From an uncultured Gemmatimonadota bacterium (GTDB lineage Bacteria; Blakebacterota; Blakebacteria; Blakebacterales; CAYUVJ01): DNA of 64,000 nt. Of the stretch, positions 7,240-44,424 are shown one piece after another (position 1 is the first letter of the stretch; the number at the start of each line of letters is the position of its first letter). The position numbers were made by a program, and so were the translations under genes. A model generated the notes under the pieces. That model was not told the origin of the DNA. It did not search any database and saw only the letters and a list, made by a program, of their open reading frames with translations. The stretch lies in contig CAZFHZ010000004.1 of the NCBI GenBank assembly GCA_964519015.1, positions 3,479 to 67,478 on the forward strand, written 5' to 3'.

Positions 7240-7244
7240 CCGGT

Positions 7245-7817
7245 TCACACCCCCTCGAGCAATTCGTTGTCCAGCCAGGTCCCCAGCTTGCGCAGTCCAC
7301 GGAAGACCTGGGTACGCGCGGTGACCTCCTCGCAGCCCAGGACCTCGGCCACCTGGCGCAACGACAGACCATCGAAGTAGCGCAGCACGACCGCGGCCCG
7401 CTGCCCATCGGGCAGGCGGTCCAGCGCCACCCGGACCGCGCCGGCCCGCTCCCGGGCGGCCAGCCGGTCGAGTACCGGCTCGGTCCCACCCCCGGCGGAG
7501 AAGACCTGGCCGCTCCACGAATGGTGCAGCCGCTGCTTGCGCTGTCGATGGCGCCGCACCTCGATGGCCCGGTTGACCGCGATCCGCTTCAGCCAGGGGA
7601 AGAAGCGATCGCCGTCGCTCAACCGGGAGAGCGCCTCCAGGGCCGAGAGGAAGGCCTCCTGGACCGTATCCTCGGCCGCCGCCCGATCCCCGTTCAGGAT
7701 CCCGGCGACCAGGCGCACGGTCGGCTCGAAATAGCGCCGGTGCAGCACGCCGTATCCCTCCAGGTCCCCGGCCAGGACCTGTTCCACGCAGCTGCGGTCT
7801 GTCGTCAGGGTCGTCAT
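7245..7817 (-). CDS. ECF-type RNA polymerase sigma-70 family factor
   Basis: From internal ATG 7817: MTTLTTDRSCVEQVLAGDLEGYGVLHRRYFEPTVRLVAGIL... region 2, and ...DGQRAAVVLRYFDGLSLRQVAEVLGCEEVTARTQVFRGLRKL region 4 HTH. Confidence 0.8.
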   Translation of the reverse strand: MTTLTTDRSCVEQVLAGDLEGYGVLHRRYFEPTVRLVAGILNGDRAAAEDTVQEAFLSALEALSRLSDGDRFFPWLKRIAVNRAIEVRRHRQRKQRLHHSWSGQVFSAGGGTEPVLDRLAARERAGAVRVALDRLPDGQRAAVVLRYFDGLSLRQVAEVLGCEEVTARTQVFRGLRKLGTWLDNELLEGV

Positions 7818-7861
7818 GGGTCTCCGCAGATAGAGTCGGAGCGGACCCTCCGATTGTTGCA

Positions 7862-7890
7862 CGAAAAAAGGCCCCGCGCGGGGGCCTTCC
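7862..7890 (-). terminator. Rho-independent terminator downstream of TolC-family gene
   Basis: Minus-strand reads aaGGCCCCCGCGCGGGGCCttttttcgtg: GC stem-loop followed by T6 run immediately after stop at 7915. Confidence 0.7.
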
Positions 7891-7914
7891 TCCGCCGGCC
7901 GACGCCGGAGCGGC

Positions 7915-9453
7915 TCACTCCTGCTGGTTGAGCAGGGCGGCCAGGGTCGCGGTGAGGGGCTGGTCCCGCTCCCAGTCCCAGAAGGTGCGCCGCTGCAGGT
8001 CGGAGAGCGCCCCCTTGTAGTCGAGGAAGGCACTCAGGTAACTGCGGCGGGCGTCGGCCAGCCGGTTCTGGGTGAGGATCAGGTCCTGGGTGTTGAGGCT
8101 CCCCTCCTCGAAACGCTCGAGTGAGAGCCGGAAGGAACGTTCGGCCGCGTTGACGCTCGGGACCAGCATCTCCAGCCGGCGCTGCGCCTCGGCGACGCGG
8201 TCGACCACATCCCGCACCTCACGCTCGATCGTGATCCGGGTCTCGTCGAGCTGCCGGTCCACCTTGCGGATCTCGGCCATCTTGGCGCTGACCTGAGCCC
8301 GATTGCGCCCCCAGTCCCAGAGCGGGATGTTGAAGTTGACCGCGGCCCCGCGGGTCTGGTCGGGATCGAGGAGGGCGTCGTAGAGCTGGTCCATCTCGTT
8401 CCCCCGCCCCTCCAGCCCCAGGATCAGGCTGACCGTGCCCCGCACCGCCCCCCAGGAGCGGCGCTCCCGCAGGTCCATCTCGTTGTACTCCTGCCAGATC
8501 TGGTTCTGGCGCACCTCGGTGCGCTGGTCGAGGGCACGCTGGATCGCCAGCGCCTCGTCGATCTCCACCGGGATGTAGGTGGTCTCGATCTCCAGCTCGA
8601 TGGGAACGTTCAGTCCCAGCCCGACCTGCTGCTTGAAGCCTGATTTCTCCCGGCCGAGCCGGCCGGTGGCTGAGGAGGAACGATTGCGGCGGTCAGCCAG
8701 GTCGACCTCGAGCTGGAGCAGGTCGATCTCGGTCAGGCTCCCCGCCTGGAAGCGGCGCCGCCCGATGGCATAGGAGCGCTCCAGGCGCGTGACTTCCTCG
8801 CGCGCCAGCAGGTCCTCGTAGGTCCGCTGGTAGAGCATGAAGTAGGCCCGGGTCACATCACCGATCGCATCGATCTGCTCGTTCAGGAATCGGATCTGGG
8901 TTTCCTCCAGGCGCAGCTCGGCCCTTCGGATGTTGAGCTGGATCGCGTTCGGCTGCAGGATCGGCTGCTCGTAACGGATGAAGAACTTGCTGTTGTAGCT
9001 CTTCAGGCCCGGCGTGTAGCTGAAGAGCTGGTCCTGGGTGCGGTTCCACACCCCGTTCAGCGAGACGACCCCGTCCGTGGGCAACGGTTGCCGGATGGAG
9101 AGGTTGGCCGAGTAGCGGGCCCCCTGGGTGCTGAGCAGTTTCGGGTTCCCGGTGTCGGGGTCGGTGATCTCCTTGATCGACTGGTCGTAGTTGGGGAGCG
9201 TCACCGCCAGGCTGGCGTTCGACTTGAGTGCCGCCCGGTTCGCCACCAGGTTGAACTGGTCGCGCTCGAGGTCGAGACGCACCCGCTCCATGCGCCAGGA
9301 TCCGCTCAGGGCGAGCCGCAGCGCCATTTCCAGGTTGAGGGTCGTTACCTGAGAGGAGTCCTCGACCCGCGGCTGGGCGGCGGCTGCGGCCGGCAGCAGA
9401 AGGGTGACCAGCAGGAGGACGCGGACCGGGGGCAGGGAGGTCGTGAGCATCAC
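7915..9453 (-). CDS. TolC-family outer-membrane efflux protein
   Basis: Signal peptide MMLTTSLPPVRVLLLVTLLLPAAAAAQ; two OEP repeats with coiled-coil segments (…LEMALRLALSGSWRMERVRLDLERDQ…, …LQRRTFWDWERDQ…) typical of TolC/OprM family. Confidence 0.8.
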   Translation of the reverse strand: MMLTTSLPPVRVLLLVTLLLPAAAAAQPRVEDSSQVTTLNLEMALRLALSGSWRMERVRLDLERDQFNLVANRAALKSNASLAVTLPNYDQSIKEITDPDTGNPKLLSTQGARYSANLSIRQPLPTDGVVSLNGVWNRTQDQLFSYTPGLKSYNSKFFIRYEQPILQPNAIQLNIRRAELRLEETQIRFLNEQIDAIGDVTRAYFMLYQRTYEDLLAREEVTRLERSYAIGRRRFQAGSLTEIDLLQLEVDLADRRNRSSSATGRLGREKSGFKQQVGLGLNVPIELEIETTYIPVEIDEALAIQRALDQRTEVRQNQIWQEYNEMDLRERRSWGAVRGTVSLILGLEGRGNEMDQLYDALLDPDQTRGAAVNFNIPLWDWGRNRAQVSAKMAEIRKVDRQLDETRITIEREVRDVVDRVAEAQRRLEMLVPSVNAAERSFRLSLERFEEGSLNTQDLILTQNRLADARRSYLSAFLDYKGALSDLQRRTFWDWERDQPLTATLAALLNQQE

Positions 9454-9502
9454 CGGGGACTCCTTGGGAGGAGGTTGCAGGCTCAGGAGGAAGGTAGGCC
9501 GG

Positions 9503-10274
9503 TCAGAAAGCGATCGCCAGCGCGTTGCGGACTGAGAGGTCGGTACGCTTCACCCCGGCCGGCGGCCGGCTGTCATACACCAGACGGGCGTCCAGTCGCA
9601 ACGAGAGTCGGGCCAGCAGCTGGACGGCGATGCCCAGGTCGTGGAGCACCCGGAAGTCGGCCGGTTCCGCCAGGCGCGGCTGCCAGTAGAGCTGGCTGCC
9701 CAGGGTGGCGGTCGGACTCAGGCTCCAGCCCACACTCAGCAGCAGGGAACCGCGCCAGCCCGGTGCCGAGGTGTCGGCACGCAGTTCTTCCTGCTCGTAC
9801 ATGAGGATCAACCCGGTGTCGAGGCGCGGCCCCTCCGCCCGCAGGGTGGTCCGGACCCCGGCCCCCGCGAGCACCCGCCGGCGCAGCCGCACGAAGGCGT
9901 CCCGCTGCAGCTGGTAGAGGGCCTCCAGGGTGAGTCCCGGCGCGAGTCGGTACCCGTAGCGCAGATGCCCCATGGCATGGTCGGCGACCCGGCGCCCCTG
10001 GGCCTTCTCCCAGGCGCCCGCGGCCACCATCTGGACCAGCTGCCGTCCTCCCATCCAGCGCAGCAGCCCGCTGCCGTCCACCGCGGCCGATTCCGCGTTC
10101 CCTTTCTTTAACCCGAATCCGACCTGGAGTGCGCCGGAGAGTCCCGGCTCGGGATCCCCGGCCAGCAGGCGCTCGATGTTGACGATCTGGGCACCGGCCG
10201 GGCGGGAGATCAGGAAGGTGGAGAGCACCAGGAGCGGGAGGAGCCGGTAGCGAGGCCGCGACACCCGCGGGGAC
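9503..10274 (-). CDS. Putative outer-membrane beta-barrel protein (DUF481/OmpV-like)
   Basis: From internal GTG 10274: VSRPRYRLLPLLVLSTFLISRPAGAQ signal peptide, alternating amphipathic beta-strand pattern, C-terminal ...NALAIAF aromatic terminus typical of OMPs. Track ORF N-terminal extension overlaps htpX in another frame and was trimmed. Confidence 0.5.
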
Positions 10275-10275
10275 C

Positions 10276-11214
10276 TCACATCGCCCGCAGGCGGGAGACC
10301 CGTTCGAGCAGTGGCGGGTGGGTGCTGAACAGGTTCTTGGCCCGGTCCTCGAACGGCTTGATGGGATTCACGATATAGAGATGTTGGGTGGCACGGTTGG
10401 CGGCCTCGAGCACTTCCTTGTCCCCCGAGATCTTCTCCAGTGCCCGGGCCAGGCCTTCCGGGTAGCGGGTGAGTTGCACCGCCCCCGCGTCGGCCAGGTA
10501 TTCTCGTTTCCGGCTGATCGAGAGCTGGAGCAACCGGGCAAAGAAGGGGGCCAGCACCGCGGCCAGCACCGCCACGATCAGGATGGCCGCCTGGCCCCCC
10601 CCACTCCCCTGCCCTGTGGAGCGGCTGCGGGTGCGGCCTCCCCCCCAGCGCATACTGCGCAGGAAAGCGTCGGCGAGCAGGGCGGTCAGGCCCACCAGCA
10701 CCCCGATCATGGTCTGGAGCCGGATATCGTAGAAACGGACGTGCGAGAGCTCGTGAGCCATCACCCCCTGCAGCTCGTCCCGGGTCAGTTTCTGCCTCAG
10801 CCCGGTGGTGATGGCCACCACCGCGTGTTCCGGATCGCGTCCGGTGGCGAAAGCGTTGGGAGCGGTGTCCTCGATCACCCAGATCTGCGGGAGGGGAAGA
10901 CCGCCGGCCAGACAGAGTTCCTCGATGACGTTCCACAGTTCGGGATCGTCTGCTTTGTGGATCTGGTGGGCCTGGCTGACCGCGAGCACCATGCTCCCCC
11001 CCGCGAACCAGGCCACCAGGCTCCAGACGATCGCGACCACGCCGAAGATACCGAGGAAACCGATCCCCTCCCCCATCCACGCTTCCCCGATGAGCCAGCC
11101 CAGACCGGTTACCACCGCGATGAAGAGCAGCACGAGCAGGGCGGTATTCCGCTTGTTCGCGTCGATATGGGTGTAGAACCCGCCCAGGGTGCGTTCTCCA
11201 GCCGCATCCATCAC
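10276..11214 (-). CDS. htpX: Zinc metalloprotease HtpX (peptidase M48)
   Basis: TM helices plus HELSHV zinc motif (…LQGVMAHELSHVRFYDIRL…) and C-terminal …NLFSTHPPLLERVSRL. Confidence 0.85.
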   Translation of the reverse strand: MMDAAGERTLGGFYTHIDANKRNTALLVLLFIAVVTGLGWLIGEAWMGEGIGFLGIFGVVAIVWSLVAWFAGGSMVLAVSQAHQIHKADDPELWNVIEELCLAGGLPLPQIWVIEDTAPNAFATGRDPEHAVVAITTGLRQKLTRDELQGVMAHELSHVRFYDIRLQTMIGVLVGLTALLADAFLRSMRWGGGRTRSRSTGQGSGGGQAAILIVAVLAAVLAPFFARLLQLSISRKREYLADAGAVQLTRYPEGLARALEKISGDKEVLEAANRATQHLYIVNPIKPFEDRAKNLFSTHPPLLERVSRLRAM

Positions 11215-16415: not shown

Positions 16416-18182
16416 TCAGGCCGGTTCCCCATCTCCGGGGATCGGGAGGGTGATCCAGAAGATCGATCCGTGGGGCGAGGCGGGCAAATATCCGACCCGT
16501 CCCCCCATCGCCTCGGTCAAGTGCTTCACGATCGAGAGCCCCAGACCGGTCCCCCCCCGCTCGCGTGAGCGTCCCTCGTCCACCCGGTAGAAGCGTTCGA
16601 AAAGGCGTTCCCGGTGCCGGGGCTCGATGCCCGGCCCATCGTCGGCCACCTCGATCCTCAGGATCGAGCCGCTCTCCACCCGGATCTCGATATGGCTCCC
16701 GGGGGGAGCGTACCGGACCGCGTTCTCCAGCAGGTTGAGCAGTACCTGGTCGAGGGCCTGGGCGTCGGCCAGTGCGACCGGCTCCCCTTCCATGATCACC
16801 CGGATCGACTGCTGTCTGGATTCGGCCGCCGGGCCGACCGAACCGGCCGCCCTCCGGACCGCCGTGCCGACGGTGATAGGGGCGGGACGAGGCCGGTACT
16901 CCCCCGCCTCGATCTTGGAGATGTCGAGCAGGTCGGCAACCAGTCCGCTGAGTCGTTCGGCGTTGCGCAGGATGGCGTCGAGGAACCGGCGCGAACGGAC
17001 CGGGTCGTCGCTGGCGTCATCGATCAGTGTCTCGGCATTGGCGCGGATGATGCTGACCGGAGTGCGCAGCTCATGGGAGACGTTGGCTACGAAGTCCCGC
17101 CGTATCCTCTCCAGCCGGCGTAGCTCGGTCACATCGTGCAGCACCAGCACCACGCCACCGGTGATCCGCAGGGGGGTCGCCCGGGCCAGAACCCGGACCG
17201 GCCGGTCCGCCCCCACCTCGAACTCCCCGGAGCCGGGTTCACCGGCCAGCGCCCGGCCGACCAGTTCCTGGACGGCCGGCGCCCGGATCGTCTCCACCAG
17301 GCTCCGTCCGATGGGGACCTCGACCAGGCCGAGGAGCTTGAGTGCTCCGGCGTTGACCAACGTAACGTGCAGTCCGGGGTCGAGGGCCAGCACCGCCTCG
17401 CTCATGCTCTCCAGGACCGCTTCGAACCGGTTGCGCTCCCGGGCCAGTGTCTCCACGGTCTGTTCGAGCCGGTCGGCGATCTCGTTGACCGAACCGGCCA
17501 GACCGCCGATCTCATCGGAGGTGTAGGCGGCGATCCGGCGCCGTGTCCCTCCCCGGACGATCGCCTCTGAGGTCTCAGCCACCCGGCGCAGGGTCCGCGA
17601 CACCAGTTCGGCGGCCATACCGCTGAGCAGGATGGCCAGACCCACTCCGATGAGTCCGGCCAGCAGGAGGAAATCGCGCAGGCGATGACGGAGGAGGAGG
17701 ACCTCGGTCAGGGGGAGAGCCAGGCGGACCGTGCCCGGCCGGTCGGGTCGTTGCAGGGGGACCGCAATGTAGAGCATCCGGGTGCCGATGGTCGCGCTGT
17801 AGCGCCGGGAGACACCGATGCCCGTCTCCTGGGCCTGCCGGATCTCCGGGCGATCGCGGTGGTTCTCGATGGCCCGGACGCCCGCCAGGTCGAGGTCGGA
17901 ATCTCCGATGATCGTGCCGTCGGCCAGGATCAGGGTGACCCGGGCAGCGACCAACTCGGCGAGCGCATCAGCGGTGGAATCGGCCCGGATGACATCGAGC
18001 GGCCCCGGGAGTCTCGACACGATCCCGGCGGCGAGTCGGGCCTGGACCAGCAGCTCGCTCTCCAGACGCTGATCGAGCCAGGAGGTCAACCGCACCTGGA
18101 CGATCCCGCCGCTCACGGCGATCACCAGCAGGATGAGGAGCAGGGAGAGGCTGAAAAGTTTTAAGCGGATCCCGACTCTCAC
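16416..18182 (-). CDS. Sensor histidine kinase (TM-HAMP-PAS-HisKA-HATPase), PhoR-like
   Basis: GTG start at 18182 overlapping RR stop (GTGA); VRVGIRLKLFSLSLLLILLVIAVSG TM; …VANVSHELRTPVSIIRANAE… H-box; …GGTGLGLSIVKHLTEAMGGRV… G2 box. ORF-track start 18329 lies inside the RR gene. Confidence 0.8.
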   Translation of the reverse strand: MRVGIRLKLFSLSLLLILLVIAVSGGIVQVRLTSWLDQRLESELLVQARLAAGIVSRLPGPLDVIRADSTADALAELVAARVTLILADGTIIGDSDLDLAGVRAIENHRDRPEIRQAQETGIGVSRRYSATIGTRMLYIAVPLQRPDRPGTVRLALPLTEVLLLRHRLRDFLLLAGLIGVGLAILLSGMAAELVSRTLRRVAETSEAIVRGGTRRRIAAYTSDEIGGLAGSVNEIADRLEQTVETLARERNRFEAVLESMSEAVLALDPGLHVTLVNAGALKLLGLVEVPIGRSLVETIRAPAVQELVGRALAGEPGSGEFEVGADRPVRVLARATPLRITGGVVLVLHDVTELRRLERIRRDFVANVSHELRTPVSIIRANAETLIDDASDDPVRSRRFLDAILRNAERLSGLVADLLDISKIEAGEYRPRPAPITVGTAVRRAAGSVGPAAESRQQSIRVIMEGEPVALADAQALDQVLLNLLENAVRYAPPGSHIEIRVESGSILRIEVADDGPGIEPRHRERLFERFYRVDEGRSRERGGTGLGLSIVKHLTEAMGGRVGYLPASPHGSIFWITLPIPGDGEPA

Positions 18183-18886
18183 GACCCGGCCATCTCCGGT
18201 CTCGGACGCAAGCGGTAGCCGACGCCCCGGACGGTCTCGATGTACTCCCCGACCGGTCCGAGTTTCTCGCGGAGCCGCTTCACGTGAGTATCCACCGTCC
18301 GGGTGGTCACATCGGCCTGTATCCCCCACACATCATCCAGCAGCATGTCGCGTGTCTGGACCCGGCCCCGCCGGTCATACAGGGTGACCAGCAGCCGGAA
18401 CTCCAGGGCGGTCAGTACGACCTCCCTGTCCTCCACCCAGACCCGGTGCCCCGGTTCGTCGATGCGGAGTCGTCCGAAGACGACGGCCGGCGCCTCCTCC
18501 GATTCCTCCCCCCGCCCCCGGCGCAGCACCGCACGCACGCGCAGCATCAGTTCCCGCATGCTGAAGGGCTTGACCACATAGTCGTCGGCCCCGACCTCGA
18601 AACCGACCACGCGGTCGATCTCCTCCTCCCGGGCGGTCAACATGATGATGAAGACGTTCCGGGTGCGGGGGTCCTCCCGCAGGCGGCGGCAGACCTCGGT
18701 ACCGGAGATGTCGGGCAGCATGATATCGAGCAGGATGAGTTCGGGGACGGGCTCCTGCACGGCGAGTTCCAGCCCCGGGCCGCCTTCGGTCGCGGTCCGG
18801 GTCGTGTAGCCCTCCCGCTGCAGGTTGTATTCCAGGATACCGAGCAGATCCGCTTCGTCCTCGATGATCAGAACAAGACCGGGCAT
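18179..18886 (-). CDS. OmpR/PhoB-family response regulator (PhoB-like)
   Basis: MPGLVLIIEDEADLLGIL…DIMLPDISG…ADDYVVKPFSMRELMLRVRAVLRR…VDTHVKRLREKLGPVGEYIETVRGVGYRL close to PhoB receiver plus winged-helix. Confidence 0.85.
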   Translation of the reverse strand: MPGLVLIIEDEADLLGILEYNLQREGYTTRTATEGGPGLELAVQEPVPELILLDIMLPDISGTEVCRRLREDPRTRNVFIIMLTAREEEIDRVVGFEVGADDYVVKPFSMRELMLRVRAVLRRGRGEESEEAPAVVFGRLRIDEPGHRVWVEDREVVLTALEFRLLVTLYDRRGRVQTRDMLLDDVWGIQADVTTRTVDTHVKRLREKLGPVGEYIETVRGVGYRLRPRPEMAGS

Positions 18887-18910
18887 GATTCTGTGAACCT
18901 GCTATTCAGA

Positions 18911-18950
18911 GGTGACGGTGTGGTGACGTCCGGGCGACGATGTCGTGACG
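18911..18950 (-). promoter_or_regulatory. Four phased 7-bp direct repeats (pho-box-like, 11-bp periodicity) upstream of the PhoB-like operon
   Basis: Minus strand reads CCGTCAC-gaca-TCGTCGC-ccgg-ACGTCAC-caca-CCGTCAC, ending about 25 nt before the RR ATG (18886); plus-strand repeats GTGACGG/GTGACGT/GCGACGA/GTGACGG at 18911, 18922, 18933, 18944. Resembles the E. coli pho box (CTGTCAT 7-mers with 4-bp spacers). Confidence 0.5.
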
Positions 18951-19071
18951 GTGGACACCCTCGGTCGGTGGGAAGATAGTCCTGACCCCTGCCGGTCGTC
19001 ACGGCGCTATGCTCACCCGGCGCGCGTTCTCGTCCCGGCTGGCGGCCAGTCGTTCGAGCCGGTCATCGGGG

Positions 19072-21108
19072 TCACATCCCTTCGAAGAAGCTGCGCATGT
19101 CCTCCACGGCCTCCGGGGCCCCCACCAGGGTGAGCCGGTCCCCCACCTGCAACGGGGTACGACCGTGGGGTACGATCATCCGGCCCTCCCGGACGATCAT
19201 CGCGATCAGGCAGCTCTCGTGCATCTGGAGCTCTCCGATGGTGCGGCCGGCCAGCAGGGTGTCCCGCACATCCACCTCGAGGACCCCGCCGCTGCGCAGG
19301 AAGAGTCCCCGGATCCGCTCATCGGTGTCGAGTTCGCGCCAGCTCCCGCCGAAATCGATCGCCTCCGCCCGGTTGGCCAATTCGGCCAGATAGCGCAGGT
19401 GCCGGCCCGGGTCCTCGCTGGGACCGATCAGGATGAAGAGGGCGTAGATCGGCTCCTGGCTCCCTTCCACCCAGACCCCGGAGACCGAATGGACGATCGT
19501 CAGTTCCGGGCTCTCGACGAAATCCACCCGGGCATGAGGGAGTGCGACGTGACGTCCGATCGGGGTCTCCCCCAGCCGGCTGGAACTGGAGAGGGCGGCC
19601 AGGATGGAGTCGGCGGGCACTTCCAGGCGCTCTGAGAAAGAGGCCGCGGCCCGGGCGAGCAGGTCCCAGTAGCTCTCGCCTTCGCGGTGGCGGAGCACAC
19701 CGGCACGCACCACGCTGTTCTCGAACGCATCGCGCCGGCGGAGACCCTTCTCCCGCAGGATCTGGCGCAGTTCCTGGTCGAGATGGGGGGTGGCGGACCG
19801 TCCCATCCGCTGGAAGAGATGATAAAGGGCACCGGTGCGGGCGACCCGGTCTCGGGCGTAGTAGATGTACCAGAGGAGGGCCAGCGCAACGAGCGCACCG
19901 GAGGAGAGCAGCGGCATCAGGCCGAGCTGCGGGATGAGCACGACCGGTGTCAGGATCCCGACGATCTGCACCCAGGGATAACCCCAAGAACGGAAACCCG
20001 GATCGTAGGAGGGGATCCGGCTCTCCCGCATCACGATCACGGCCAGGCTGACCAGCCCGAAGACCATCAGCTGGAAGGCGCTGGCCAGTTTGGCGATGCC
20101 CACCGGACTGAGGACCAGGATGAAGACCATCATGAGACCGGCCGTGAGCAGGATGGCGTTGGTCGGGGTATGGAACCGGCCCAGCCGGCGGAAGACCTCG
20201 GGGGCCATGTCATCCCGCCCCATCGCGAACGGGTAACGGGAGGCGGCTGCCAGACCGGCGTTGGCGGAGGAGACGAAGGAGAGGACCGCGGCGGTCACGA
20301 AGGCCAGCACACCGATCCGCCCCGTGAAACGCCCGGCCGCATAGGCCACCGGGGTCAGGGTGCCGGAGAGTCCATCCGGCTCGCTCACCCCGATCAGCAC
20401 GAACATCACGAGCACATAGACCAGGGTGGCGATGCCCAGCGCATAGATCATCGCCAGCGGGATGGTGCGTTCGAGCCGATCGATCTCCTCGGAGATGCTG
20501 GCCACCTTGGTCAATCCGGTGAAACCCACGAAGACGATGCCCACCGAGGCCAGGAAGGCGTTGGCGTCAGTCGTCCAGAACGGCACCAGGTGCGAACTCT
20601 CCATATGGAAGAGACCCTCGACGACGAACCAGACCATCACGCCGAGTACGGCCGCGACCATCAGGACCTGGATGCGCGCCATGTGCCGAACCCCGGCGAT
20701 GTTGACCACCACCAGCAGACAGCAGATCGCCAGCGCCACCGGACGGAAAGAGAAGTCGAGGAAGAGCGCGGTGTATGCGCCCAGCCCCACCAGGTCGAAG
20801 GCGCTCTTGAAGGTCATGGCCAGCCAGGTCCCCAGCCCGGCCACCGTGCCGACCATCGGGCCGAGTGCCCGATCGAGGAAGAAATAGGTCCCGCCGGCAC
20901 GTGGCATGGCCGTGGAGAGTTCCGCTTTGCTGAGCAAGGCCGGAATCAACAGCAGGCCGGCCACCAGATAGACCAGAGGCGCCGCGTTCCCGACCTGGCG
21001 GAAGACCAGGGAAGGGAGCAGGAAGATCCCCGAAGCCAGCATCGGTGCGATACTGATCGCGAAGACCGCCGGCAAGCGAAGCTGTCTGCGCAGGCGCTGT
21101 TCGTTCAA
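19072..21108 (-). CDS. APC-family amino-acid permease fused to C-terminal PTS-EIIA(Ntr/fructose type-2)-like and TrkA_C domains
   Basis: 12 predicted TM helices (…SIAPMLASGIFLLPSLVFRQVGNAAPLVYLVAGLLLIPALLSKAELSTAMPRAGGTYFF…); C-terminal …LLARAAASFSERLEVPADSILAALSSSSRLGETPIGRHVALPHARVDFVESPELTIVHS… (EIIA-2-like with His) then …LAGRTIGELQMHESCLIAMIVREGRMIVPHGRTPLQVGDRLTLVG… (TrkA_C/RCK_C). Confidence 0.75.
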   Translation of the reverse strand: MNEQRLRRQLRLPAVFAISIAPMLASGIFLLPSLVFRQVGNAAPLVYLVAGLLLIPALLSKAELSTAMPRAGGTYFFLDRALGPMVGTVAGLGTWLAMTFKSAFDLVGLGAYTALFLDFSFRPVALAICCLLVVVNIAGVRHMARIQVLMVAAVLGVMVWFVVEGLFHMESSHLVPFWTTDANAFLASVGIVFVGFTGLTKVASISEEIDRLERTIPLAMIYALGIATLVYVLVMFVLIGVSEPDGLSGTLTPVAYAAGRFTGRIGVLAFVTAAVLSFVSSANAGLAAASRYPFAMGRDDMAPEVFRRLGRFHTPTNAILLTAGLMMVFILVLSPVGIAKLASAFQLMVFGLVSLAVIVMRESRIPSYDPGFRSWGYPWVQIVGILTPVVLIPQLGLMPLLSSGALVALALLWYIYYARDRVARTGALYHLFQRMGRSATPHLDQELRQILREKGLRRRDAFENSVVRAGVLRHREGESYWDLLARAAASFSERLEVPADSILAALSSSSRLGETPIGRHVALPHARVDFVESPELTIVHSVSGVWVEGSQEPIYALFILIGPSEDPGRHLRYLAELANRAEAIDFGGSWRELDTDERIRGLFLRSGGVLEVDVRDTLLAGRTIGELQMHESCLIAMIVREGRMIVPHGRTPLQVGDRLTLVGAPEAVEDMRSFFEGM

Positions 21109-21349
21109 ACGATCCTCCTTCGGGCCGTGCTCCGGCGCCGGTGCGGACCGATCCCGGCGGCGCGGGGAGAACAGAATATCGGATGGTCCTTCGGGGTGCC
21201 AGTACCGACCATCCAGCCTTCAAGGGCGGCGCGGGCGGACCGCAGAGGCCGCTTGCAGTCCCTCCCCTCCTTCCGGCAAAGTAGGGCGCTGATACGGGAC
21301 TCCGGCTCCCTCGGAGGGTCTGAGGGCAGAAGCGATCCCGATCCCCACC

Positions 21350-22495
21350 GTGGGGAGAGCGGAGGCGGGCATGGCGGTCGAGATCCGTGAAGTGAAGGAC
21401 CGGGCGGAGTTGAAGACGTTCATCTTCCTCCCCCGGGAGATCCACCGCGACCACTCCACCTGGGTGCCCCCCTTCTGGGGAGACGACCGGAACTATTATA
21501 ACGCCCGCAAGAACCGCGCCTTCCTCTACAGCGATGTCATCCTGCTGCTCGCCTGGCGGGAGGGCCGCCCGGTCGGCCGGGTGATGGGGATCGTCAACCG
21601 GCGTTTCAACGAACACCGGCAGGAGAAGACGGCCCGCTTCGGCTACCTCGACACCTTCGAGGACCCCGAGGTCGTCCCCGCCCTGCTGGCGGCGGTCGAG
21701 GAATGGGCCCGAGGGCTCGGGATGCAGCGCATCATCGGCCCCTACGGCTTCTCCGACCAGGACCCGGAGGGATTCCTCATCGAAGGCTTCGACAACCGGG
21801 CCACCATCGCCACCCTCCACAACTTCCGCTGGATGCCGCCGCTGATCGAACAGGCGGGCTACAGCAAGGACAACGACTACTTCGTCTACAAGATCGACAT
21901 CCCGGAAGTGCTGCCGGAGTTCTACACCAGGATCTTCGAACGGATCGTCAAGCGGGGACAGTTCCACCTGCTCGAATTCACCAAGCGGAGCCAGATCAAG
22001 CCGTGGATCGTGCCGGTGCTCTCCCTCATGAACGAGTGCTACATGGCCAGCAACATCTACGGCTACACCCCGCTCGACGAACAGGAGATGCATCACCTCG
22101 CCCAGCGCTATCTGCCCATCCTCGACCCTCGTTTCGTGAAGGTGGTGCTGAAGGACGACCAGGTGGTCTCGTTCGTCATCGGCATCCCCGATATGACCGA
22201 GGGGATCCAGCGGGCCGGCGGCCACCTCTTCCCCTTCGGCTTCATCCAGGTCCTGCAGGCCGCTCGGCGCACGCGACAGCTCGACCTGCTGCTGGGAGCC
22301 ATCAAGGAGGAGCACCGGGGGAAGGGGCTCGACGCGATGATGGGGGTGGCCATGCTCCGCTCCGCCTGGGAGGCGGGTATGGATGTCATCGACACCCACC
22401 ATGAGATGGAGACCAACACCAGCGTACGCGCCGAGATGGAGCGCATGGGCGGGGTCATCTACAAGAAGTACCGGGTCTGGCAGAAGACGCTCTGA
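21350..22495 (+). CDS. GNAT-fold N-acyltransferase-like protein (FemAB/DUF-type), function unknown
   Basis: 380 aa, no signal peptide; …FGYLDTFEDPEVVPALLAAVEEWARGLGMQRIIGPYGF… and C-terminal …LDLLLGAIKEEHRGKGLDAMM… consistent with tandem acyl-CoA N-acyltransferase folds; alternative start at 21371 (MAVEIREV). Confidence 0.45.
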   Translation: MGRAEAGMAVEIREVKDRAELKTFIFLPREIHRDHSTWVPPFWGDDRNYYNARKNRAFLYSDVILLLAWREGRPVGRVMGIVNRRFNEHRQEKTARFGYLDTFEDPEVVPALLAAVEEWARGLGMQRIIGPYGFSDQDPEGFLIEGFDNRATIATLHNFRWMPPLIEQAGYSKDNDYFVYKIDIPEVLPEFYTRIFERIVKRGQFHLLEFTKRSQIKPWIVPVLSLMNECYMASNIYGYTPLDEQEMHHLAQRYLPILDPRFVKVVLKDDQVVSFVIGIPDMTEGIQRAGGHLFPFGFIQVLQAARRTRQLDLLLGAIKEEHRGKGLDAMMGVAMLRSAWEAGMDVIDTHHEMETNTSVRAEMERMGGVIYKKYRVWQKTL

Positions 22496-25854: not shown

Positions 25855-27276
25855 GTGAACGACACCTCCGCGGGAGAAACCGCCCCGATGCGCGATGAGC
25901 CCGACCGCACCCTCCCCCGCGAACTCCGGCTCTTCTCCACGACCAACATCGTGATCGCCGACATGATCGGCGCCGGCATCTTCACCACCTCAGGCCTGCT
26001 CATGGCCGGCCTGTACAACCCGGTACTGATGCTGCTGCTCTGGCTGGTCGGCGGGGTGCTCGCGCTCTGCGGCGCGCTCTGCTACGGGGAACTGGGCGCG
26101 GCCATGCCCGAAGCGGGGGGGGAGTACGTCTACCTCAGCCGGCTCTACCATCCCCTGCTGGGCTTTCTGACCGGCTGGGTCTCCATCATGGCCGGATTCT
26201 CCGCCCCGATCGCGGCCGCCTCCCTGGGCTGCAGCGAGTACCTGGCCGCCGCCTTCCCCGCCCTCTTCGCCTGGGGGAACCCGTTCCTGCTCAGAAGGAT
26301 CCTCGCCCTGGCCGTCATCATCACCTTCACGGCTATACACTACCGGGGCATCCGGTTCGGAGCGGCCGTGCAAAACGGGCTCACCGTCCTGAAGGTGTTG
26401 CTGATCGTGGCGCTGATCACGGCCGGTTTCGCGGTCGGCCGGGGGGACCTCGGTCACCTCTTTGAGGGGCGGCCCTTCACCCTCGACTTCGGCGGCTTCA
26501 AGACCATCGGCCTCTCACTGATGTGGATCATGTTCGCCTACAGCGGCTGGAGCGCCTCCTCCTATCTGGGCGCCGAGATCCGCGACCCGGTGCGCAACCT
26601 CCCCCGCTCCCTGCTGCTCGGGACCGGCGTGGTGACCCTGCTCTATTTCCTGCTCAACCTGCTCTTCGTCTACGCCGCCCCACCCGAGGAGATGAGCGGG
26701 GTGATCGCCATCGGGGGGCTCACCGCCGGCCGGCTCTTCGGGGACTCGGTCCAGAGCCTGGTCTCGCTCCTGATCGCTTTCGCCCTGTTGTCGGCCATCA
26801 GCGTCTTCATCATCCTGGGTCCGCGGGTCTACTACGCCATGGCCCGGGACGGCTGTTTCTTCCGGACGGCCGGCCGGATCCACCCGCTCTTCCGTTCCCC
26901 CCACATATCGATCGTGCTCCAGTCCCTGATCGCGGCCGTCATGGTCCTGACCGGCACCTTCGACCAGATCCTGACCTACATGGGGTTCTCGCTCGGGATC
27001 TTCCCCCTCTTCGCGGTCTTCGGGGTCTTCCGGCTGCGCCGGCACGGCGTCAGCGTCGCCCCGATGCCGCTCTATCCCCTGGCCCCGCTGATCTTCCTGG
27101 TGGCCGGGATCGGCATCCTCGTGTTCGCCTATCTCGAGCGCCCGGTCGAATCCTCGATCGCGCTGTTGATGGTCGCGGCCGGCATCCCGGCTTGGTTCCT
27201 CTTCACCCGGAGCGCCGCCCGGACGGCCGCCCGGGAGCGCGCTGTGACGGATCGCACATCCGAAACCCCGGAGTGA
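25855..27276 (+). CDS. APC-family amino-acid/polyamine permease
   Basis: 12 TM; …RELRLFSTTNIVIADMIGAGIFTTSGLLMAG… and …GGEYVYLSRLYHPLLGFLTGW… APC signatures. Confidence 0.8.
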   Translation: MNDTSAGETAPMRDEPDRTLPRELRLFSTTNIVIADMIGAGIFTTSGLLMAGLYNPVLMLLLWLVGGVLALCGALCYGELGAAMPEAGGEYVYLSRLYHPLLGFLTGWVSIMAGFSAPIAAASLGCSEYLAAAFPALFAWGNPFLLRRILALAVIITFTAIHYRGIRFGAAVQNGLTVLKVLLIVALITAGFAVGRGDLGHLFEGRPFTLDFGGFKTIGLSLMWIMFAYSGWSASSYLGAEIRDPVRNLPRSLLLGTGVVTLLYFLLNLLFVYAAPPEEMSGVIAIGGLTAGRLFGDSVQSLVSLLIAFALLSAISVFIILGPRVYYAMARDGCFFRTAGRIHPLFRSPHISIVLQSLIAAVMVLTGTFDQILTYMGFSLGIFPLFAVFGVFRLRRHGVSVAPMPLYPLAPLIFLVAGIGILVFAYLERPVESSIALLMVAAGIPAWFLFTRSAARTAARERAVTDRTSETPE

Positions 27277-27997: not shown

Positions 27998-29113
27998 TTA
28001 GTACCCCGGCGGGCGCTCCGGCAGAGGGTAGAGGGTCACACCCTCCCGCGCGGCCGCCAGCACCTTCGAGAGACTGACCACAACCAACTTGGCGGTCGGG
28101 CTCGACAGCAGATAGACCCGGTCGCCGAGCACGACCAGGTCGTCCCAGGTGGCATGGTTACCTTCTTTGACCAGGTTGACCCCGAAGCGGCCGAAGGAGA
28201 CGGGGTGGAGCGCCCCCGTGGCCAGGTCGATGACGGCCAGGTTATAGAGCGGTCCGCCAACCAGGAGTTGATCTCCGATCTGTACCCCGCCCCCGAAGAT
28301 GGCCACTGCGCTAGCGGCACGGACGGCGGGGGCCCGGCGCTCTTCCAGCGTTTCCTGCCAGGCGGGGGCGATTAGGGGGAAACCCTTGTCAATCTCCCAG
28401 AACCAGTCGATCGGCTCGCTTCCAAGTCGCACCAGCCGCGGAACGTGCCGGAAGAGCAGCCAGGGAGAACCGGTTTCACCGATCAGATCCACGACTCCTT
28501 CTAAGAAGGTGCGGACACCCGGCTGCCAGGGATCGGCAGCCACTATCGCTCCGGTCCTGTCGTATTCGGTGAGCAGGGTGTCCGGCCGACCGGGAGAGCC
28601 GGTGAAATACTCCTCCACCGCCGGGTTGTACCGGTACTTGGCGACCAGGACCGTGCCGTGATCGGTCAGAAACACTTCCGGGGGGTGGGAAGCCCGGGTG
28701 AGGACGCGGAATCCACCCCGATAGCGGCCCTCATAGTCCAGGAACTCGATCCGGTTGCTCCGGCTCATGAAACCGTCCAGGACGGCCAGCGTGCCGTCCT
28801 GGACACAGATGTCGGCAATCCCGCTGAACTCCCCCGGTCCCTCTCCGAGCCGGCCGATCTTGCGGATAAGGTTCAGCTCGGCATCGAACACGTAGACCGC
28901 ATGCAGTCCCTGGTCGGCGATGAAGAGGAGCGGACTGTCGACGGCCGCGCTGACCGGCCGGTAGACCGGATAGCCGGGCAGATCGGTATGGACCTCGAAG
29001 TCGGTGAGTACCCCGCCCAGGGCGGGCCGCTTCTTCGGATCGCTCGAGGAGCCGCATGCCCCGCTGATCATCAGCAGGACCAGAAGGGGAGCGATCACCG
29101 TCCGCTTCCTCAT
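27998..29113 (-). CDS. NHL-repeat/6-bladed beta-propeller lipoprotein, paralog A
   Basis: Internal ATG 29113: MRKRTVIAPLLVLLMISGAC|GSS lipobox; …GRLGEGPGEFSGIADICVQDGTLAVLD… NHL-type blade. Confidence 0.55.
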   Translation of the reverse strand: MRKRTVIAPLLVLLMISGACGSSSDPKKRPALGGVLTDFEVHTDLPGYPVYRPVSAAVDSPLLFIADQGLHAVYVFDAELNLIRKIGRLGEGPGEFSGIADICVQDGTLAVLDGFMSRSNRIEFLDYEGRYRGGFRVLTRASHPPEVFLTDHGTVLVAKYRYNPAVEEYFTGSPGRPDTLLTEYDRTGAIVAADPWQPGVRTFLEGVVDLIGETGSPWLLFRHVPRLVRLGSEPIDWFWEIDKGFPLIAPAWQETLEERRAPAVRAASAVAIFGGGVQIGDQLLVGGPLYNLAVIDLATGALHPVSFGRFGVNLVKEGNHATWDDLVVLGDRVYLLSSPTAKLVVVSLSKVLAAAREGVTLYPLPERPPGY

Positions 29114-29126
29114 CCGATGACTCCGC

Positions 29127-30347
29127 TCAGTGATAATGCAGTCCCTCCACGGCCGGAACGATCCGGTAAACGATAGGTATCTGCTCATCGGTCTCTGGCA
29201 GAGTACGAATGCTCATAAGCTGGCCATCTCGGATCGAGAACAGCTTGCCCGGGAGGTGCGCGCGACCCAAATAGCGGCCCTCCGAGTCCACCACGTGCCA
29301 CCAGGCGGCATCCACAGCCCAATTGAAGACGTTGCCCTCAACATCGCGCAGCCAGAACCAGCCTCGATCGTCAGCATAGATACTCGTGCTGAAACCAAAC
29401 CGTTCCGCGAAGACGACCTGTTGTCGGATATCCTCCGACGGCAACCGGCCCTCGGCGGTGGCCAGACTATCCATGAATGTGAAGTACCGGTTCCTGAACG
29501 CAGCGTCGATGGGACGCTCCTGCTGGTCGATCCGGATGATCCGGCGCAGTACCCCCAGGGGGGAGAAGATCTGGATGAGTGGTTGGTTTCCTTGGGCGAG
29601 AATGATCTCGCGTTCACGAGTGACGGCCATAGCCGATGAACCCCCGAAGAAGACGACGGACAGACGTCCCCGATAAGTTCCTCCCAGTCCGGACGGGTAG
29701 GTGACCCTCGATTCCGGCACGAACTCACCCCGCACGATGGCCACCGTGTCACCTGTGGTCGCCCGCGTGATGAGGGCTCGCGGCCGAGTGTAGTGTACAT
29801 CGGTCAGCCGCTGACCTTCCCAACTGATGCCGATCAGATAATCGCGATTGGAAACCAGGACGTTTGGTACTCCACCATTCGACTGCCGGAAGGAATCGAG
29901 GAAACACCCGTCGGTGGTTACGCGGCTGGCCCGTTGAGTTCCGTGATCGTAGATCGTCAGGGTGTCGCCATCGAGAGCGGTAATCTCGGGACCCCGGTAC
30001 TCCCCGGGGCCGTAGCCACGCCGGCCGAATGTGCACCGGTACCTTCCGTCGGCCTCGTAGACGACGATCCGCCCTTTCCTCCCATCCACCACGTAGTACC
30101 GGCCGTCCATGCCCCGCTCGAAAGAGGCGACGCCCCATAGCAGCGATGCTTCTTGGGCGGAGTCCTGTTCCAGCCGGAACAGTTCCTCGAACCGGAAGAG
30201 CTGCTCAGCATAGGCCGGACCACCGGTGGTCTCGGCCACCCGGACGCCCTCCTCGGTGTGGGTGCGAAAACGATGGCCGCCCGGTGGGCCGCCCCCACAG
30301 CCGGACACGAGGATAACGGCCGCCAGTACGGGGCCGATCCGCGGCAT
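29127..30347 (-). CDS. NHL-repeat/6-bladed beta-propeller lipoprotein, paralog B
   Basis: MPRIGPVLAAVILVSGC|GGG lipobox; …RYYVVDGRKGRIVVYEADGRYRCTFGRRGYGPGEYRGPEITALDGDTLTIYD…; about 65% identical to paralog C with clear DNA-level similarity. Confidence 0.6.
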   Translation of the reverse strand: MPRIGPVLAAVILVSGCGGGPPGGHRFRTHTEEGVRVAETTGGPAYAEQLFRFEELFRLEQDSAQEASLLWGVASFERGMDGRYYVVDGRKGRIVVYEADGRYRCTFGRRGYGPGEYRGPEITALDGDTLTIYDHGTQRASRVTTDGCFLDSFRQSNGGVPNVLVSNRDYLIGISWEGQRLTDVHYTRPRALITRATTGDTVAIVRGEFVPESRVTYPSGLGGTYRGRLSVVFFGGSSAMAVTREREIILAQGNQPLIQIFSPLGVLRRIIRIDQQERPIDAAFRNRYFTFMDSLATAEGRLPSEDIRQQVVFAERFGFSTSIYADDRGWFWLRDVEGNVFNWAVDAAWWHVVDSEGRYLGRAHLPGKLFSIRDGQLMSIRTLPETDEQIPIVYRIVPAVEGLHYH

Positions 30348-30423
30348 GATCAAGCTCCTGGTCAAGATCTGCCCGAGGAAAGGAACAACATCAAGCAGAC
30401 GCACCGTTACGAATCCCGTTTAT

Positions 30424-30469
30424 AACCGGCGGCGGCCTGTCCATCAGCTACAAGAAGCCGCCGGAGTAG
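30424..30469 (+). repeat. 45-bp near-exact duplicate (about 42/45) of the O-methyltransferase 3' end including its stop codon
   Basis: 30424 ccggcggcggcctgtccatcagctacaagaagccgccggagtagg versus 27939 ccggcggcggtctgtccatcagctacaagaagccgcctgagtaag; both encode GGGLSISYKKPPE*. Located between paralogs B and C. Confidence 0.85.
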
Positions 30470-30478
30470 GCTGGCGGC

Positions 30479-31732
30479 TCAGCGATAGCGCAGACCCTCC
30501 ACGGCCGGAACGATCCGGTAAACGGTCGGGATCTGCTCGCCGGTCTCTTCGACGTAGCGGATGCACATGAGCAGACCGTCGCGGATGGCATAGGGCGTGC
30601 CGGGAAAGTATGCCCGCCCCAGGTAACGCCCCTCGGCGTCCACGACGTGCCAGCCCGCCGCGTCCGGTTCGGTGGCGATGTACCGGCTCATCACATCCAT
30701 GAGCCATAACCATCCCCGGTCGTCCGCCCGCAGATCCTCGCTGAAACCGACTTTGTCCGCGAAGACGAGACGCTCCCGAAGACCTTCCTGAGGGATTCTT
30801 CCGCTGGCGGTCGCCAGACTGTCCATGAATGCGAAGTACCGGTTGCGGAATGAGGCGTCGATAGGCCGCTCCGGCTGCTCGATCCGGATGCGGGGGCGCG
30901 GCTCTCCGAGCGGCGAAAAGATCTGGATGAGGGCTTCGTTCCCCTGCGCCACCACGATGTCATGCCGGGGAGTGATCACCATCATGGGATACCCACCCAG
31001 TTGCAGCATGGAATAGCGGCCGCGGTAGGTGCCCCCCGGTTCCGTCAGATCTGTGAAGCGGGTTACGGGCACGAACTCCCCGCGCACGATAGCCACCGTG
31101 TCGCCCGTGGCCGCCCGGGTGATGAGGGCCCGGGACCGGCTGTACTGGATGTTGGCCGGCCGTTGACTCTCCGAGACGACGCCGATCAGCAGGCCGTCGT
31201 GGGCCACCAGGACGCTCGGTCCTCCACCGTTCGACTGCCGGAAGGTATCGAGGAGACGCCCGTCGGTGGTGAATCGGATTGCCCGCTGCAGTCCGGTGTC
31301 GTGGATCGTCAGGGTGTCCCCGTCGAAGGCGGTGAGCTTGGGCATCCGGAACTCGCCCGGGCCGCTGCCGCGCCGGCCGAACGTGCTCCGGTACGACCCG
31401 TCCGCCTCATAGACCACGACCCGGCAATCGCCGCCGTCCAGCACGTAGTACCGGCCGTCCGGGCCCCGTTCGAATGAATTGACCCGGCTGAGCAGGGAGG
31501 CTTCCTGCGCCGGGTCCTGCTTCAGCCGGAGCACCTCCTCGAACCGGAAGAGGGGCTCGGAGTGGGCCGGACCGCCGGTGGTCTCGGCCACCCGGACACC
31601 ATCCTCGGTATAGGTACGGAACTGGTGACCGCCCGGCGGGCCGCCCCCGCAGCCGACGAGAATCCCGAGCAGCAGCACCAGGATTGGCCGGAGTGACCGT
31701 CCGATCGTCCCAGCATAGTCGGTGCGCGACAT
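30479..31732 (-). CDS. NHL-repeat/6-bladed beta-propeller lipoprotein, paralog C
   Basis: MSRTDYAGTIGRSLRPILVLLLGILVGC|GGG; …RYYVLDGGDCRVVVYEADGSYRSTFGRRGSGPGEFRMPKLTAFDGDTLTIHD…; ATG overlaps paralog D stop (TGATG). Confidence 0.6.
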   Translation of the reverse strand: MSRTDYAGTIGRSLRPILVLLLGILVGCGGGPPGGHQFRTYTEDGVRVAETTGGPAHSEPLFRFEEVLRLKQDPAQEASLLSRVNSFERGPDGRYYVLDGGDCRVVVYEADGSYRSTFGRRGSGPGEFRMPKLTAFDGDTLTIHDTGLQRAIRFTTDGRLLDTFRQSNGGGPSVLVAHDGLLIGVVSESQRPANIQYSRSRALITRAATGDTVAIVRGEFVPVTRFTDLTEPGGTYRGRYSMLQLGGYPMMVITPRHDIVVAQGNEALIQIFSPLGEPRPRIRIEQPERPIDASFRNRYFAFMDSLATASGRIPQEGLRERLVFADKVGFSEDLRADDRGWLWLMDVMSRYIATEPDAAGWHVVDAEGRYLGRAYFPGTPYAIRDGLLMCIRYVEETGEQIPTVYRIVPAVEGLRYR

Positions 31733-32967: not shown

Positions 32968-32971
32968 ATGC

Positions 32972-34183: not shown

Positions 34184-34261
34184 CGGGCTCCTGGTCGAGG
34201 GACCGCCCGGTTCCGGTAGTATCGAGAGGACGGATCCGGAGGGCAGGCGTTTATCACCGTC

Positions 34262-34305
34262 CGGGAACACAAACGCCCCCTGGAGGCGGTTCATCCTCCA
34301 GGGGG
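34262..34305 (-). terminator. Rho-independent terminator downstream of tRNA-Asn
   Basis: 11-bp perfect inverted repeat CCCCCTGGAGG/CCTCCAGGGGG (34276-34286 / 34295-34305, 8-nt loop) followed on the minus strand by GTTTGTGTT. Confidence 0.65.
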
Positions 34306-44372: not shown

Positions 44373-44424
44373 AAACAAAACGGGAGGAGGTTGTTGGCCT
44401 CCCCCCGCTCCCGAGAAGAGGTGG

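Follow-up and report, generated by a model that had tools for sequence, protein, structure and literature searches.

The DNA analyzed here, a 64-kb window of a contig from an uncultured Gemmatimonadota bacterium, encodes on its minus strand (19072-21108) an APC-type permease that is fused to a soluble regulatory tail. By the window we mean the whole of this stretch. The tail consists of a domain with the fold of PtsN, the enzyme IIA component (EIIA) of the nitrogen phosphotransferase system (PTS), followed by an RCK_C domain, TrkA_C in Pfam. A reading made from the letters of the DNA alone (below, the sequence-only reading) had described this fusion, and had proposed that the permease is gated by PTS phosphorylation; the description is borne out, the proposal in part. 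We find that the gene is a further member of an existing, uncharacterized family that is visible in databases, that both histidines of PtsN are conserved in that family, and that the tail is portable and occurs on other carriers as well. As to whether we are looking at an APC permease with a PTS-responsive switch, gated by the phosphorylation state of His525 in the tail, we consider the chances to be even.

The gene is a single open reading frame (ORF) holding permease and tail, as in the sequence-only reading. It is 678 amino acids (aa) long and uninterrupted, and its GC content at third codon positions (GC3), 0.86, is as expected for a coding frame in a window with 68% GC. For all three of its domains, the Pfam gathering cut-off is 27 bits, and all three exceed it.

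The permease matches AA_permease_2 (PF13520) over residues 12-394 with 153.9 bits (E 8.6e-45). A full-length AlphaFold2 (AF2) model built on 74 homologs has a mean predicted local distance difference test score (pLDDT) of 83, and it shows the 12 transmembrane helices anticipated for this protein, the last one ending at residue 418. Hydropathy agrees, and reveals no hydrophobic segment beyond residue 425, so that the tail of about 258 residues is soluble; given the 12 helices and the topology of the APC family, it should be cytoplasmic. The best Foldseek match of the permease is GkApcT (6f34/5oqt; TM-score 0.85, root-mean-square deviation 2.4), which a phmmer search of the PDB also returns with an E-value of 3e-21, and BasC, AdiC, the SLC7 LATs and ApcT are also among the closest solved relatives. 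Substrate-specific NCBIfam models all score far under their cut-offs (TIGR00909, 155 bits with a cut-off of 557; BcaP, 137 with a cut-off of 690). From these matches, the label of an amino-acid-type permease seems justified, with no specific substrate assigned.

The first domain of the tail matches PTS_EIIA_2 (PF00359; residues 479-600, 41.1 bits). A model of the tail (residues 460-678) has a pLDDT of 92.6. The top relatives of this domain in the PDB, both by sequence and by fold, are the EIIA-Ntr proteins of Burkholderia, Neisseria and E. coli (3urr, 2a0j, 4gqx, 1a6j). Target TM-scores to the PtsN structures are 0.75-0.81, and these structures outrank the sugar-specific EIIA-Mtl and EIIA-Fru. 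The PtsN equivalog TIGR01419 is not among the NCBIfam matches listed for the fusion, and the only EIIA model among them is fruA, with 32.5 bits for a cut-off of 103.5. We regard this domain, a fused one at a distance of 24 kb from rpoN, as PtsN-like by nearest neighbor only, and not as PtsN proper.

In a residue alignment, the histidine that the sequence-only reading had singled out in the context ...RHVALPHARVD... is His525, in an ALPH motif, and it corresponds to His73 of E. coli PtsN, which is the established phosphorylation site (PMC2215328). A second histidine, His570 in the motif HLRxLA, corresponds to His120. The phospho-acceptor proposed by that reading holds in so far as both histidines of PtsN are present; the canonical Arg57 of PtsN, on the other hand, is not conserved, and we come back to it below.

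Between the permease and the EIIA domain there is a linker with low pLDDT in the full-length model (residues 439-459), after which that model has both tail domains well folded. The conservation of its motif ELRxILREKGLRxxDxF (446-462) equals that of the active site, and the motif is found only in APC fusions.

The tail ends in a TrkA_C domain (PF02080; residues 611-675, 53.3 bits), also in agreement with the sequence-only reading. Its fold matches include the RCK_C domain of CpaA bound to cyclic di-AMP (c-di-AMP; 5f29, 4ys2) at a TM-score of 0.9, and TrkA (3jxo) at 0.78. Conservation in this part is limited to the generic TrkA_C motifs R640, P647, D657 and G663. The sequence-only reading gave the domain no role; its presence implies a second input or a role in dimerization. 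Both tail domains named by that reading are thus above the Pfam cut-off, with the conserved histidine in place.

How far this fusion spreads was a point that the sequence-only reading left to a survey, and it turns out to be widespread, not rare. In a search of 5.8 billion proteins, the three-domain architecture is present in 114 of the 120 best matches (42-95% identity), and five of the six exceptions lack the TrkA_C call only. Five shorter homologs of about 610 aa, P0063-P0066 included, stop once the EIIA domain is complete. Scanning GTDB with one genome for each species, we find the fusion in at least 373 species of more than 12 phyla; of 80 species loci, 78 hold an ORF of about 685-806 aa. 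The hosts include Balneolales and Rhodothermales, including the cultured Rubrivirga and Fodinibius halophilus; other Bacteroidota, Ignavibacteria, Calditrichota, Gemmatimonadota and Planctomycetota (Phycisphaerae); and SAR324, Myxococcota, Verrucomicrobiota, Kiritimatiellia, Chloroflexota, Deinococcota, Leptospiraceae and Holophagae. The fusion itself and the PyrG encoded in the window are 59% and 75% identical to named Zixibacteria proteins, by which the window is probably from a relative of Zixibacteria. JGI annotates members as 'amino acid transporter / PTS IIA component (Ntr-type)', and our full-text literature searches found no publication on the APC-EIIA-TrkA_C fusion. As a side observation, Rubrivirga sp. 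IMCC45206 carries tandem paralogs of the fusion (at 5878-7971 and about 8600-10700 of locus L005); this bacterium is cultured and completely sequenced, and could be an experimental model.

The conservation of the two histidines can be followed at increasing divergence. Both are present in all close homologs (120/120 for His525 and 120/120 for His570; 42-95% identity). Among species-level sequences, the tails of which are 27-55% identical, we count His525 in 76/79 and His570 in 79/79, and among representatives of 50%-identity clusters the counts are 113/132 and 134/146. In these representatives the two histidines tend to disappear together, with 7 double losses (odds ratio 15.6; p 1e-4, uncorrected for phylogeny). 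Joint loss fits a paired active site. Moreover, a working two-histidine phosphoryl site that has degenerated in some lineages would be expected to look like this, retained almost everywhere and lost jointly in a few cases, and a near-invariant His525 is what a hard-wired PTS input would predict.

At His525, the 79 species-level sequences hold three exceptions, two with Asp and one with Asn. Overall, the putative phospho-histidine is replaced by Asp (ALPD or MLPD), Asn or Tyr, in sequences from Trueperaceae (L067), Longimicrobiales (L049) and Caldilineaceae (L048) and in P0148, P0187, P0212 and P0241; in several clusters both histidines are gone together. Aspartate is used as a phosphomimetic, and an Asp at the phospho-site could be a built-in phosphomimetic in hosts without a phosphodonor. 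A 2008 survey reports no PTS in the Thermus/Deinococcus group or in Bacteroidetes (PMC2405797).

If the permease is gated by the PTS, the mechanism could be as follows. His525 would be reversibly phosphorylated by phosphorylated HPr or NPr, with phosphoenolpyruvate as the ultimate donor via Enzyme I (EI). Depending on its phosphorylation state, the EIIA domain would pack differently on the RCK_C domain and, via the conserved linker, on the cytoplasmic face of the permease, and transport would be switched between a restrained and an active state. RCK_C would contribute a further signal, read from a small ligand (for example a nucleotide, c-di-AMP or an ion), or dimerize two protomers, or both. 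We infer the phosphorylation and its donor, the direction of its effect, the ligand of RCK_C, and the substrate.

A number of observations weigh against phosphorylation as the switch. In structures of EIIA-Mtl and EIIA-Ntr, a conserved arginine has a role in the active site of this type of domain. The column of the fusion family that aligns with Arg57 of E. coli PtsN holds Gly, Ser, Thr or Ala in the 120 close homologs, and never Arg. About 14% of the divergent cluster representatives (19/132) keep the domain without His525, and therefore some members must function without it. The Bacteroidota members retain His525 despite the reported absence of a PTS from Bacteroidetes (PMC2405797). A motif search of the 64-kb window found no gene for EI or for HPr/NPr, and a regular-expression search within 10 kb of the fusion in 80 other genomes found no EI or HPr motif either, although divergent proteins could escape both searches. 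Finally, an EIIA fold that is regulatory and not phosphorylated exists in SLC4/Band 3.

The same observations can be read in favor of a different mechanism, in which the EIIA domain is an allosteric or scaffolding module that works independently of phosphorylation. The histidines would then bind a ligand or stabilize an interface, and regulation would come mainly from the RCK_C ligand (for instance c-di-AMP, a nucleotide or K+), as in systems of the KtrA/CpaA type. The missing arginine, the representatives that have lost His525 and kept the domain, the SLC4/Band 3 domains that appear among the fold matches, the TM-score of 0.9 to c-di-AMP-bound CpaA, the failure of the motif searches to find EI or HPr nearby, and the reported absence of a PTS from Bacteroidetes would all find a place in it. 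It has more difficulty with the PtsN motif A-L-P-H and the second histidine, nearly invariant across phyla and lost together, which are most simply understood as phosphoryl chemistry. In addition, the variants of about 610 aa (P0063-P0066) keep EIIA in the absence of TrkA_C, which makes EIIA, and not RCK_C, the constant element; and this genome does have HprK and other PTS proteins. On balance, we find this alternative, the main rival of a PTS-responsive switch, rather doubtful.

The tail is not restricted to the APC permeases. An exhaustive HMMER search with the tail reports 1,271 cluster representatives at E <= 1e-3. In a Pfam scan of the long representatives, the combination of EIIA_2 and TrkA_C is found on an Na_H_Exchanger carrier with two EIIA domains and on SulP+STAS carriers, and also on APC carriers with an extra TrkA_N+TrkA_C or with two Usp domains. 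On two Phycisphaeraceae chromosomes (L028 and L031, 3307-6820), two tandem Na_H_Exchanger-EIIA_2 genes are directly upstream of the APC fusion, and another planctomycete (L030, 910-3180) encodes an Na_H_Exchanger-TrkA_N-EIIA_2 protein; these loci are local clusters of EIIA-tagged carriers. A protein of another kind is P0144 (889 aa), in which the cassette, from the motif IMKEKGLR on, comes after some 640 aa of Glu/Lys/Ala-rich, coiled-coil-like sequence and there is no transporter; this could reflect either a chimera of the assembly or a fusion that really is different.

Tentatively, and with a confidence that falls short of even, we propose that bacteria outside Proteobacteria use the EIIA(Ntr-like)-RCK_C tail as a gate with two inputs, one that is portable and serves at least three unrelated superfamilies of secondary carriers (APC, CPA and SulP). 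One input would be the state of the PTS, through His525, and the other a small-molecule or ion signal through RCK_C. PtsN acting on TrkA and YcgO in E. coli would then be one case of an ancient partnership, found widely, between EIIA and RCK domains.

The nature of the other carriers also raises the possibility that ours is less a nutritional importer of amino acids than an ion or osmotic homeostasis carrier (for a compatible solute, glutamate or a cation) that the cassette ties to K+ status, which could happen by either mechanism. Apart from the Na+/H+ (K+/H+) exchangers and SulP anion carriers that bear the cassette or EIIA alone, and the pairs of CPA-EIIA genes directly upstream of the fusion in Phycisphaeraceae, this would agree with the K+ systems that PtsN targets in trans. 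Marine or halophilic taxa are frequent among the hosts (Balneolales, Rubrivirga, Fodinibius halophilus, SAR324, Phycisphaerae and one member of Trueperaceae from a salar). The permease sequence also matches SLC12 cation-chloride carriers in the PDB search, and the NCBIfam substrate models, as said, are all far below cut-off. But the best matches by sequence and by fold are amino-acid carriers (GkApcT, BasC, AdiC, the LATs, ApcT), the motif A-S-G-I-F-L-L-P in the first transmembrane helix resembles, on reading the sequence, the amino-acid site of AdiC-type proteins, and the Pfam scan of the fusion finds no K_trans/KUP-type signature. We judge such a role to be unlikely.

The genes around the fusion offer little that is shared by the family. 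Here, a PhoB-like response regulator and a histidine kinase with PAS and HAMP domains follow on the same strand. The sequence-only reading had placed the fusion downstream of this PhoB-like operon; the order is in fact the reverse, and the fusion is the 5′ gene. It had found no terminator between them, and neither do we recognize an intrinsic one in the spacer of 113-185 nt. Because no terminator is found between them, the fusion and the PhoB-like pair are possibly co-transcribed. We found no sigma-54 promoter upstream of the fusion, and sigma-54 matches across the window are fewer than expected by chance; scans for sigma-70 promoters and terminators returned nothing on the strand of the fusion. 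The regulator matches PhoB best and the kinase PnpS/PhoR, in each case below the equivalog cut-offs (PhoB TIGR02154, 241.7 with a cut-off of 296.2; PhoR TIGR02966, 261 with 334; PnpS, 320 with 400). PhoB-like is a fair label, short of an identification.

One could imagine from this arrangement that in this lineage the permease is a transceptor, and that its EIIA tail modulates the PhoB/PhoR-like pair. Unphosphorylated PtsN does bind PhoR and KdpD in E. coli (PMC13104625), and relatives at 95% identity share the order of fusion, regulator and kinase. The 77% and 63% orthologs have lost it, however, and a regulator or kinase occurs within 10 kb of the fusion in only about 6 of the 80 species loci, often on the opposite strand. 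Together with the scores below the PhoB and PhoR equivalog cut-offs, this makes such a role very improbable; a membrane-tethered EIIA that reaches a kinase is possible, and we found no precedent for it here. Linkage to PhoB/PhoR as a feature of the family we reject, since the synteny is confined to the 95%-identical relatives.

That the whole construct is an artefact, with a permease gene and an EIIA-TrkA_C gene wrongly joined in assembly or annotation or with domains matched by chance, is excluded: cassette-only proteins of about 245 aa do exist in the library of representatives, but the sole one checked (P0161) is a contig-edge truncation, the fused ORF is unbroken here and in hundreds of independent assemblies, complete chromosomes included, and domain E-values and fold matches of this quality are in no way to be expected by chance. 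This also disposes of a mis-merged ORF, which the sequence-only reading had named among the findings that would undo it. P0161, which we had looked at as a candidate free-standing EIIA-RCK_C protein, begins 40 nt from the end of its contig, its ORF runs on in frame upstream, and the gene caller had chosen a conserved internal Met as the start. The others begin at the same motif, and are probably truncations from the same internal Met or Val.

The coordinates of the fusion, its parts and the neighboring genes discussed in the text are collected in Table 1.

Table 1. Features of the fusion gene and of its surroundings, in coordinates of the 64-kb window.
Feature	Position	Strand	Basis or remark
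APC permease-EIIA(Ntr-like)-RCK_C fusion gene	19072..21108	-	complete, 678 aa, TGA stop 19072-19074
Ribosome-binding site GAAGGAGG (21114-21121), 5-nt spacer, TTG start (21106-21108)	21106..21121	-	sequence; start position identical in homolog P0001
12-helix APC/LeuT-fold transport domain, residues ~10-418	19855..21081	-	Pfam, AF2, hydropathy, Foldseek
Juxtamembrane linker, residues 419-462 (R424, A427, F432, G436, ELRxILREKGLRxxDxF)	19723..19854	-	conservation
EIIA type-2, PtsN-like domain, residues ~463-605	19294..19722	-	Pfam, PDB sequence and fold matches
Ser509 codon, aligned with active-site Arg57 of E. coli PtsN	19582..19584	-	residue alignment
His525 codon, aligned with phospho-acceptor His73 of E. 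coli PtsN (ALPH motif)	19534..19536	-	residue alignment
His570 codon, aligned with His120 of E. coli PtsN (HLRxLA motif)	19399..19401	-	residue alignment
TrkA_C/RCK_C domain, residues 611-675	19084..19278	-	Pfam and fold
PhoB-like response regulator and PAS/HAMP histidine kinase	16416..18958	-	downstream of fusion; profile matches
Response regulator	18886-18179	-	
Histidine kinase	18329-16416	-	
Stand-alone PtsN-like EIIA type-2, 163 aa	39545..40036	-	Arg and both His kept
EIIB-Man	42539-43033	-	
EIIA-Man	43030-43401	-	
hprK	43398-44549	-	
hpf	44425-44781	-	
rpoN	44785-46203	-	

The sequence-only reading had also pointed to a cluster of PTS genes (rpoN-hpf-hprK-EIIA-Man-EIIB-Man ... ptsN) 18-25 kb away. 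All of these genes are where it said, on the minus strand, and with ptsN included the distance to the fusion is 18-25 kb. Those from rpoN to EIIB-Man occupy 42.5-47.9 kb together with lptB and a gene like TenA. The stand-alone PtsN-like protein shows that this genome has a free EIIA(Ntr) besides the fused one, and with hprK, EIIA-Man, EIIB-Man and free PtsN in the genome, an HPr-type phosphocarrier is expected. The nearness of the cluster, to which that reading attached meaning, did not survive the comparison of 80 species loci, where no PTS gene is conserved beside the fusion. Homologs of hprK, rpoN, hpf and EIIA-Man are found near it at none of these loci, and a free ptsN at only 3. An all-against-all clustering of the 4,990 ORFs within 10 kb on each side reports no conserved neighbor in more than 6 loci; the large ORF clusters that at first appear as neighbors are shadow ORFs inside the fusion gene. 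The fusion behaves as a free-standing gene, and therefore any phosphodonor must be encoded elsewhere.

Several features of the window are worth recording in their own right. Next to the fusion there is a divergently transcribed ORF (21371-22495, plus strand; 374-381 aa), for which neither Pfam nor NCBIfam nor the sequences of the PDB give a match. It is 85% identical beside the 77% ortholog (L085), it is also found beside the 95% relatives, and it is not beside the 63% ortholog; its stretch HRGKGLD may recall the acetyl-CoA motif of GNAT acyltransferases. A second APC permease of 473 aa (25855-27276, plus strand), closest to the LAT-type TIGR00911, has no regulatory tail; it is 4.7 kb from the fusion and is followed by an O-methyltransferase. 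At 27998-34294 (minus strand) we find five consecutive paralogs of 396-440 aa, a tandem family expansion, four of which weakly match DUF5128 (6-bladed beta-propeller). The 63% ortholog (L086/L087) has as neighbors an Na+/alanine symporter, an M14 carboxypeptidase and an alanine racemase, which hints weakly at a setting of amino-acid or peptide use.

In the PTS region, the TenA-like gene, of the TenA/THI-4/PQQC family (46262-47158, minus strand), sits between lptB and rpoN of the classic order lptC-lptA-lptB-rpoN-hpf-hprK. The hprK ORF overlaps hpf by about 125 nt, and the true hprK start is probably further downstream. After EIIA-Man and EIIB-Man, which are of the sorbose type, comes an MlaD-domain gene (41655-42569, minus strand) and not EIIC or EIID; therefore these Man-type PTS proteins are without an adjacent permease in the window. 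Farther away, an 800-aa GAF-SpoIIE (PP2C-type) phosphatase (61036-63438, minus strand) is probably part of a partner-switching module.

What would follow if the permease is indeed switched by the PTS? According to a 2023 review, the only bacterial transporter known to be regulated by direct phosphorylation is LacS, whose fused EIIA-Glc-like domain is phosphorylated by HPr, with a change in activity (PMC10710835). The fusion would be a second class of bacterial transporter under direct histidine phosphorylation, far more widespread than the first (at least 373 species, more than 12 phyla), with a different EIIA fold and with RCK_C. It would extend regulation of the PTS(Ntr) type, so far described almost only in Proteobacteria, to the FCB group, Planctomycetota, Gemmatimonadota and others, and it would tie the carbon and nitrogen status of the cell directly to amino-acid uptake. 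If in addition the tail is a portable cassette, direct histidine phosphorylation of transporters would be common, and LacS would not be an oddity. The fusion also acts as a 'Rosetta stone' that gives independent support to a physical partnership of EIIA(Ntr) with RCK domains, of value as the mechanism for TrkA and YcgO in E. coli is still debated, and it offers a tethered, single-polypeptide system in which the EIIA-RCK interaction could be studied structurally.

Compared with known systems, the permease has the 12-helix LeuT-type fold of GkApcT, ApcT, BasC and AdiC (about 23% identity and TM-score 0.85 to GkApcT), none of which has a C-terminal EIIA or RCK_C domain. KtrA, CpaA, BusR and TrkA have in common with the fusion the Pfam family and the fold of RCK_C, also placed at the C-terminus of a transport protein. 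In those proteins, RCK_C comes after RCK_N or acts as a c-di-AMP receptor dimer, whereas the fusion has a single RCK_C after EIIA and no RCK_N. The cytoplasmic domain of the SLC4 carriers (Band 3/AE/NBC), which is among the fold matches at 13-16% identity, is also an EIIA fold on a secondary transporter with a regulatory or scaffolding function; unlike ours, it is N-terminal, eukaryotic and much larger, and it is not known to be phosphorylated on histidine.

The two remaining comparisons are with LacS and with PtsN. With LacS, the idea of an EIIA-fused carrier has a precedent. LacS of Streptococcus thermophilus and S. salivarius is, like the fusion, a non-PTS carrier with a C-terminal cytoplasmic EIIA, but its EIIA has the unrelated type-1 (Glc) fold, its carrier is a sugar transporter of the GPH family, and it has no RCK_C. 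What is new here relative to LacS-like carriers is the type-2, PtsN-like fold on a carrier of another superfamily (APC), and the added RCK_C. A Pfam scan of the fusion gives no GPH or PTS_EIIA_1 match, and the fusion is a functional analog of the LacS-type carriers, not a member.

PtsN proteins, that of E. coli among them, are the closest relatives of the tail EIIA in sequence and in fold, with both histidines in common, and the targets of PtsN are transport systems with RCK domains: in E. coli, unphosphorylated PtsN binds TrkA and, on the CPA1 antiporter YcgO, the RCK_C/CorC tail (PMC11808508; PMC13104625). PtsN itself, of about 160 aa, is free, comes from rpoN operons and has Arg57, whereas the EIIA of the fusion is tethered between permease and RCK_C and lacks the arginine. 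The targets that PtsN acts on in trans are K+ systems (TrkA, YcgO and KdpD; PMC13104625), whereas the carrier of the fusion is of the amino-acid type. Seen by analogy, the EIIA+RCK_C and CPA+EIIA fusions would unite in one polypeptide the partners that E. coli keeps in trans. We propose that the fusion may be the cis equivalent of free, unphosphorylated PtsN on TrkA and YcgO, and the type-2 EIIA counterpart of the IIA domain of LacS.

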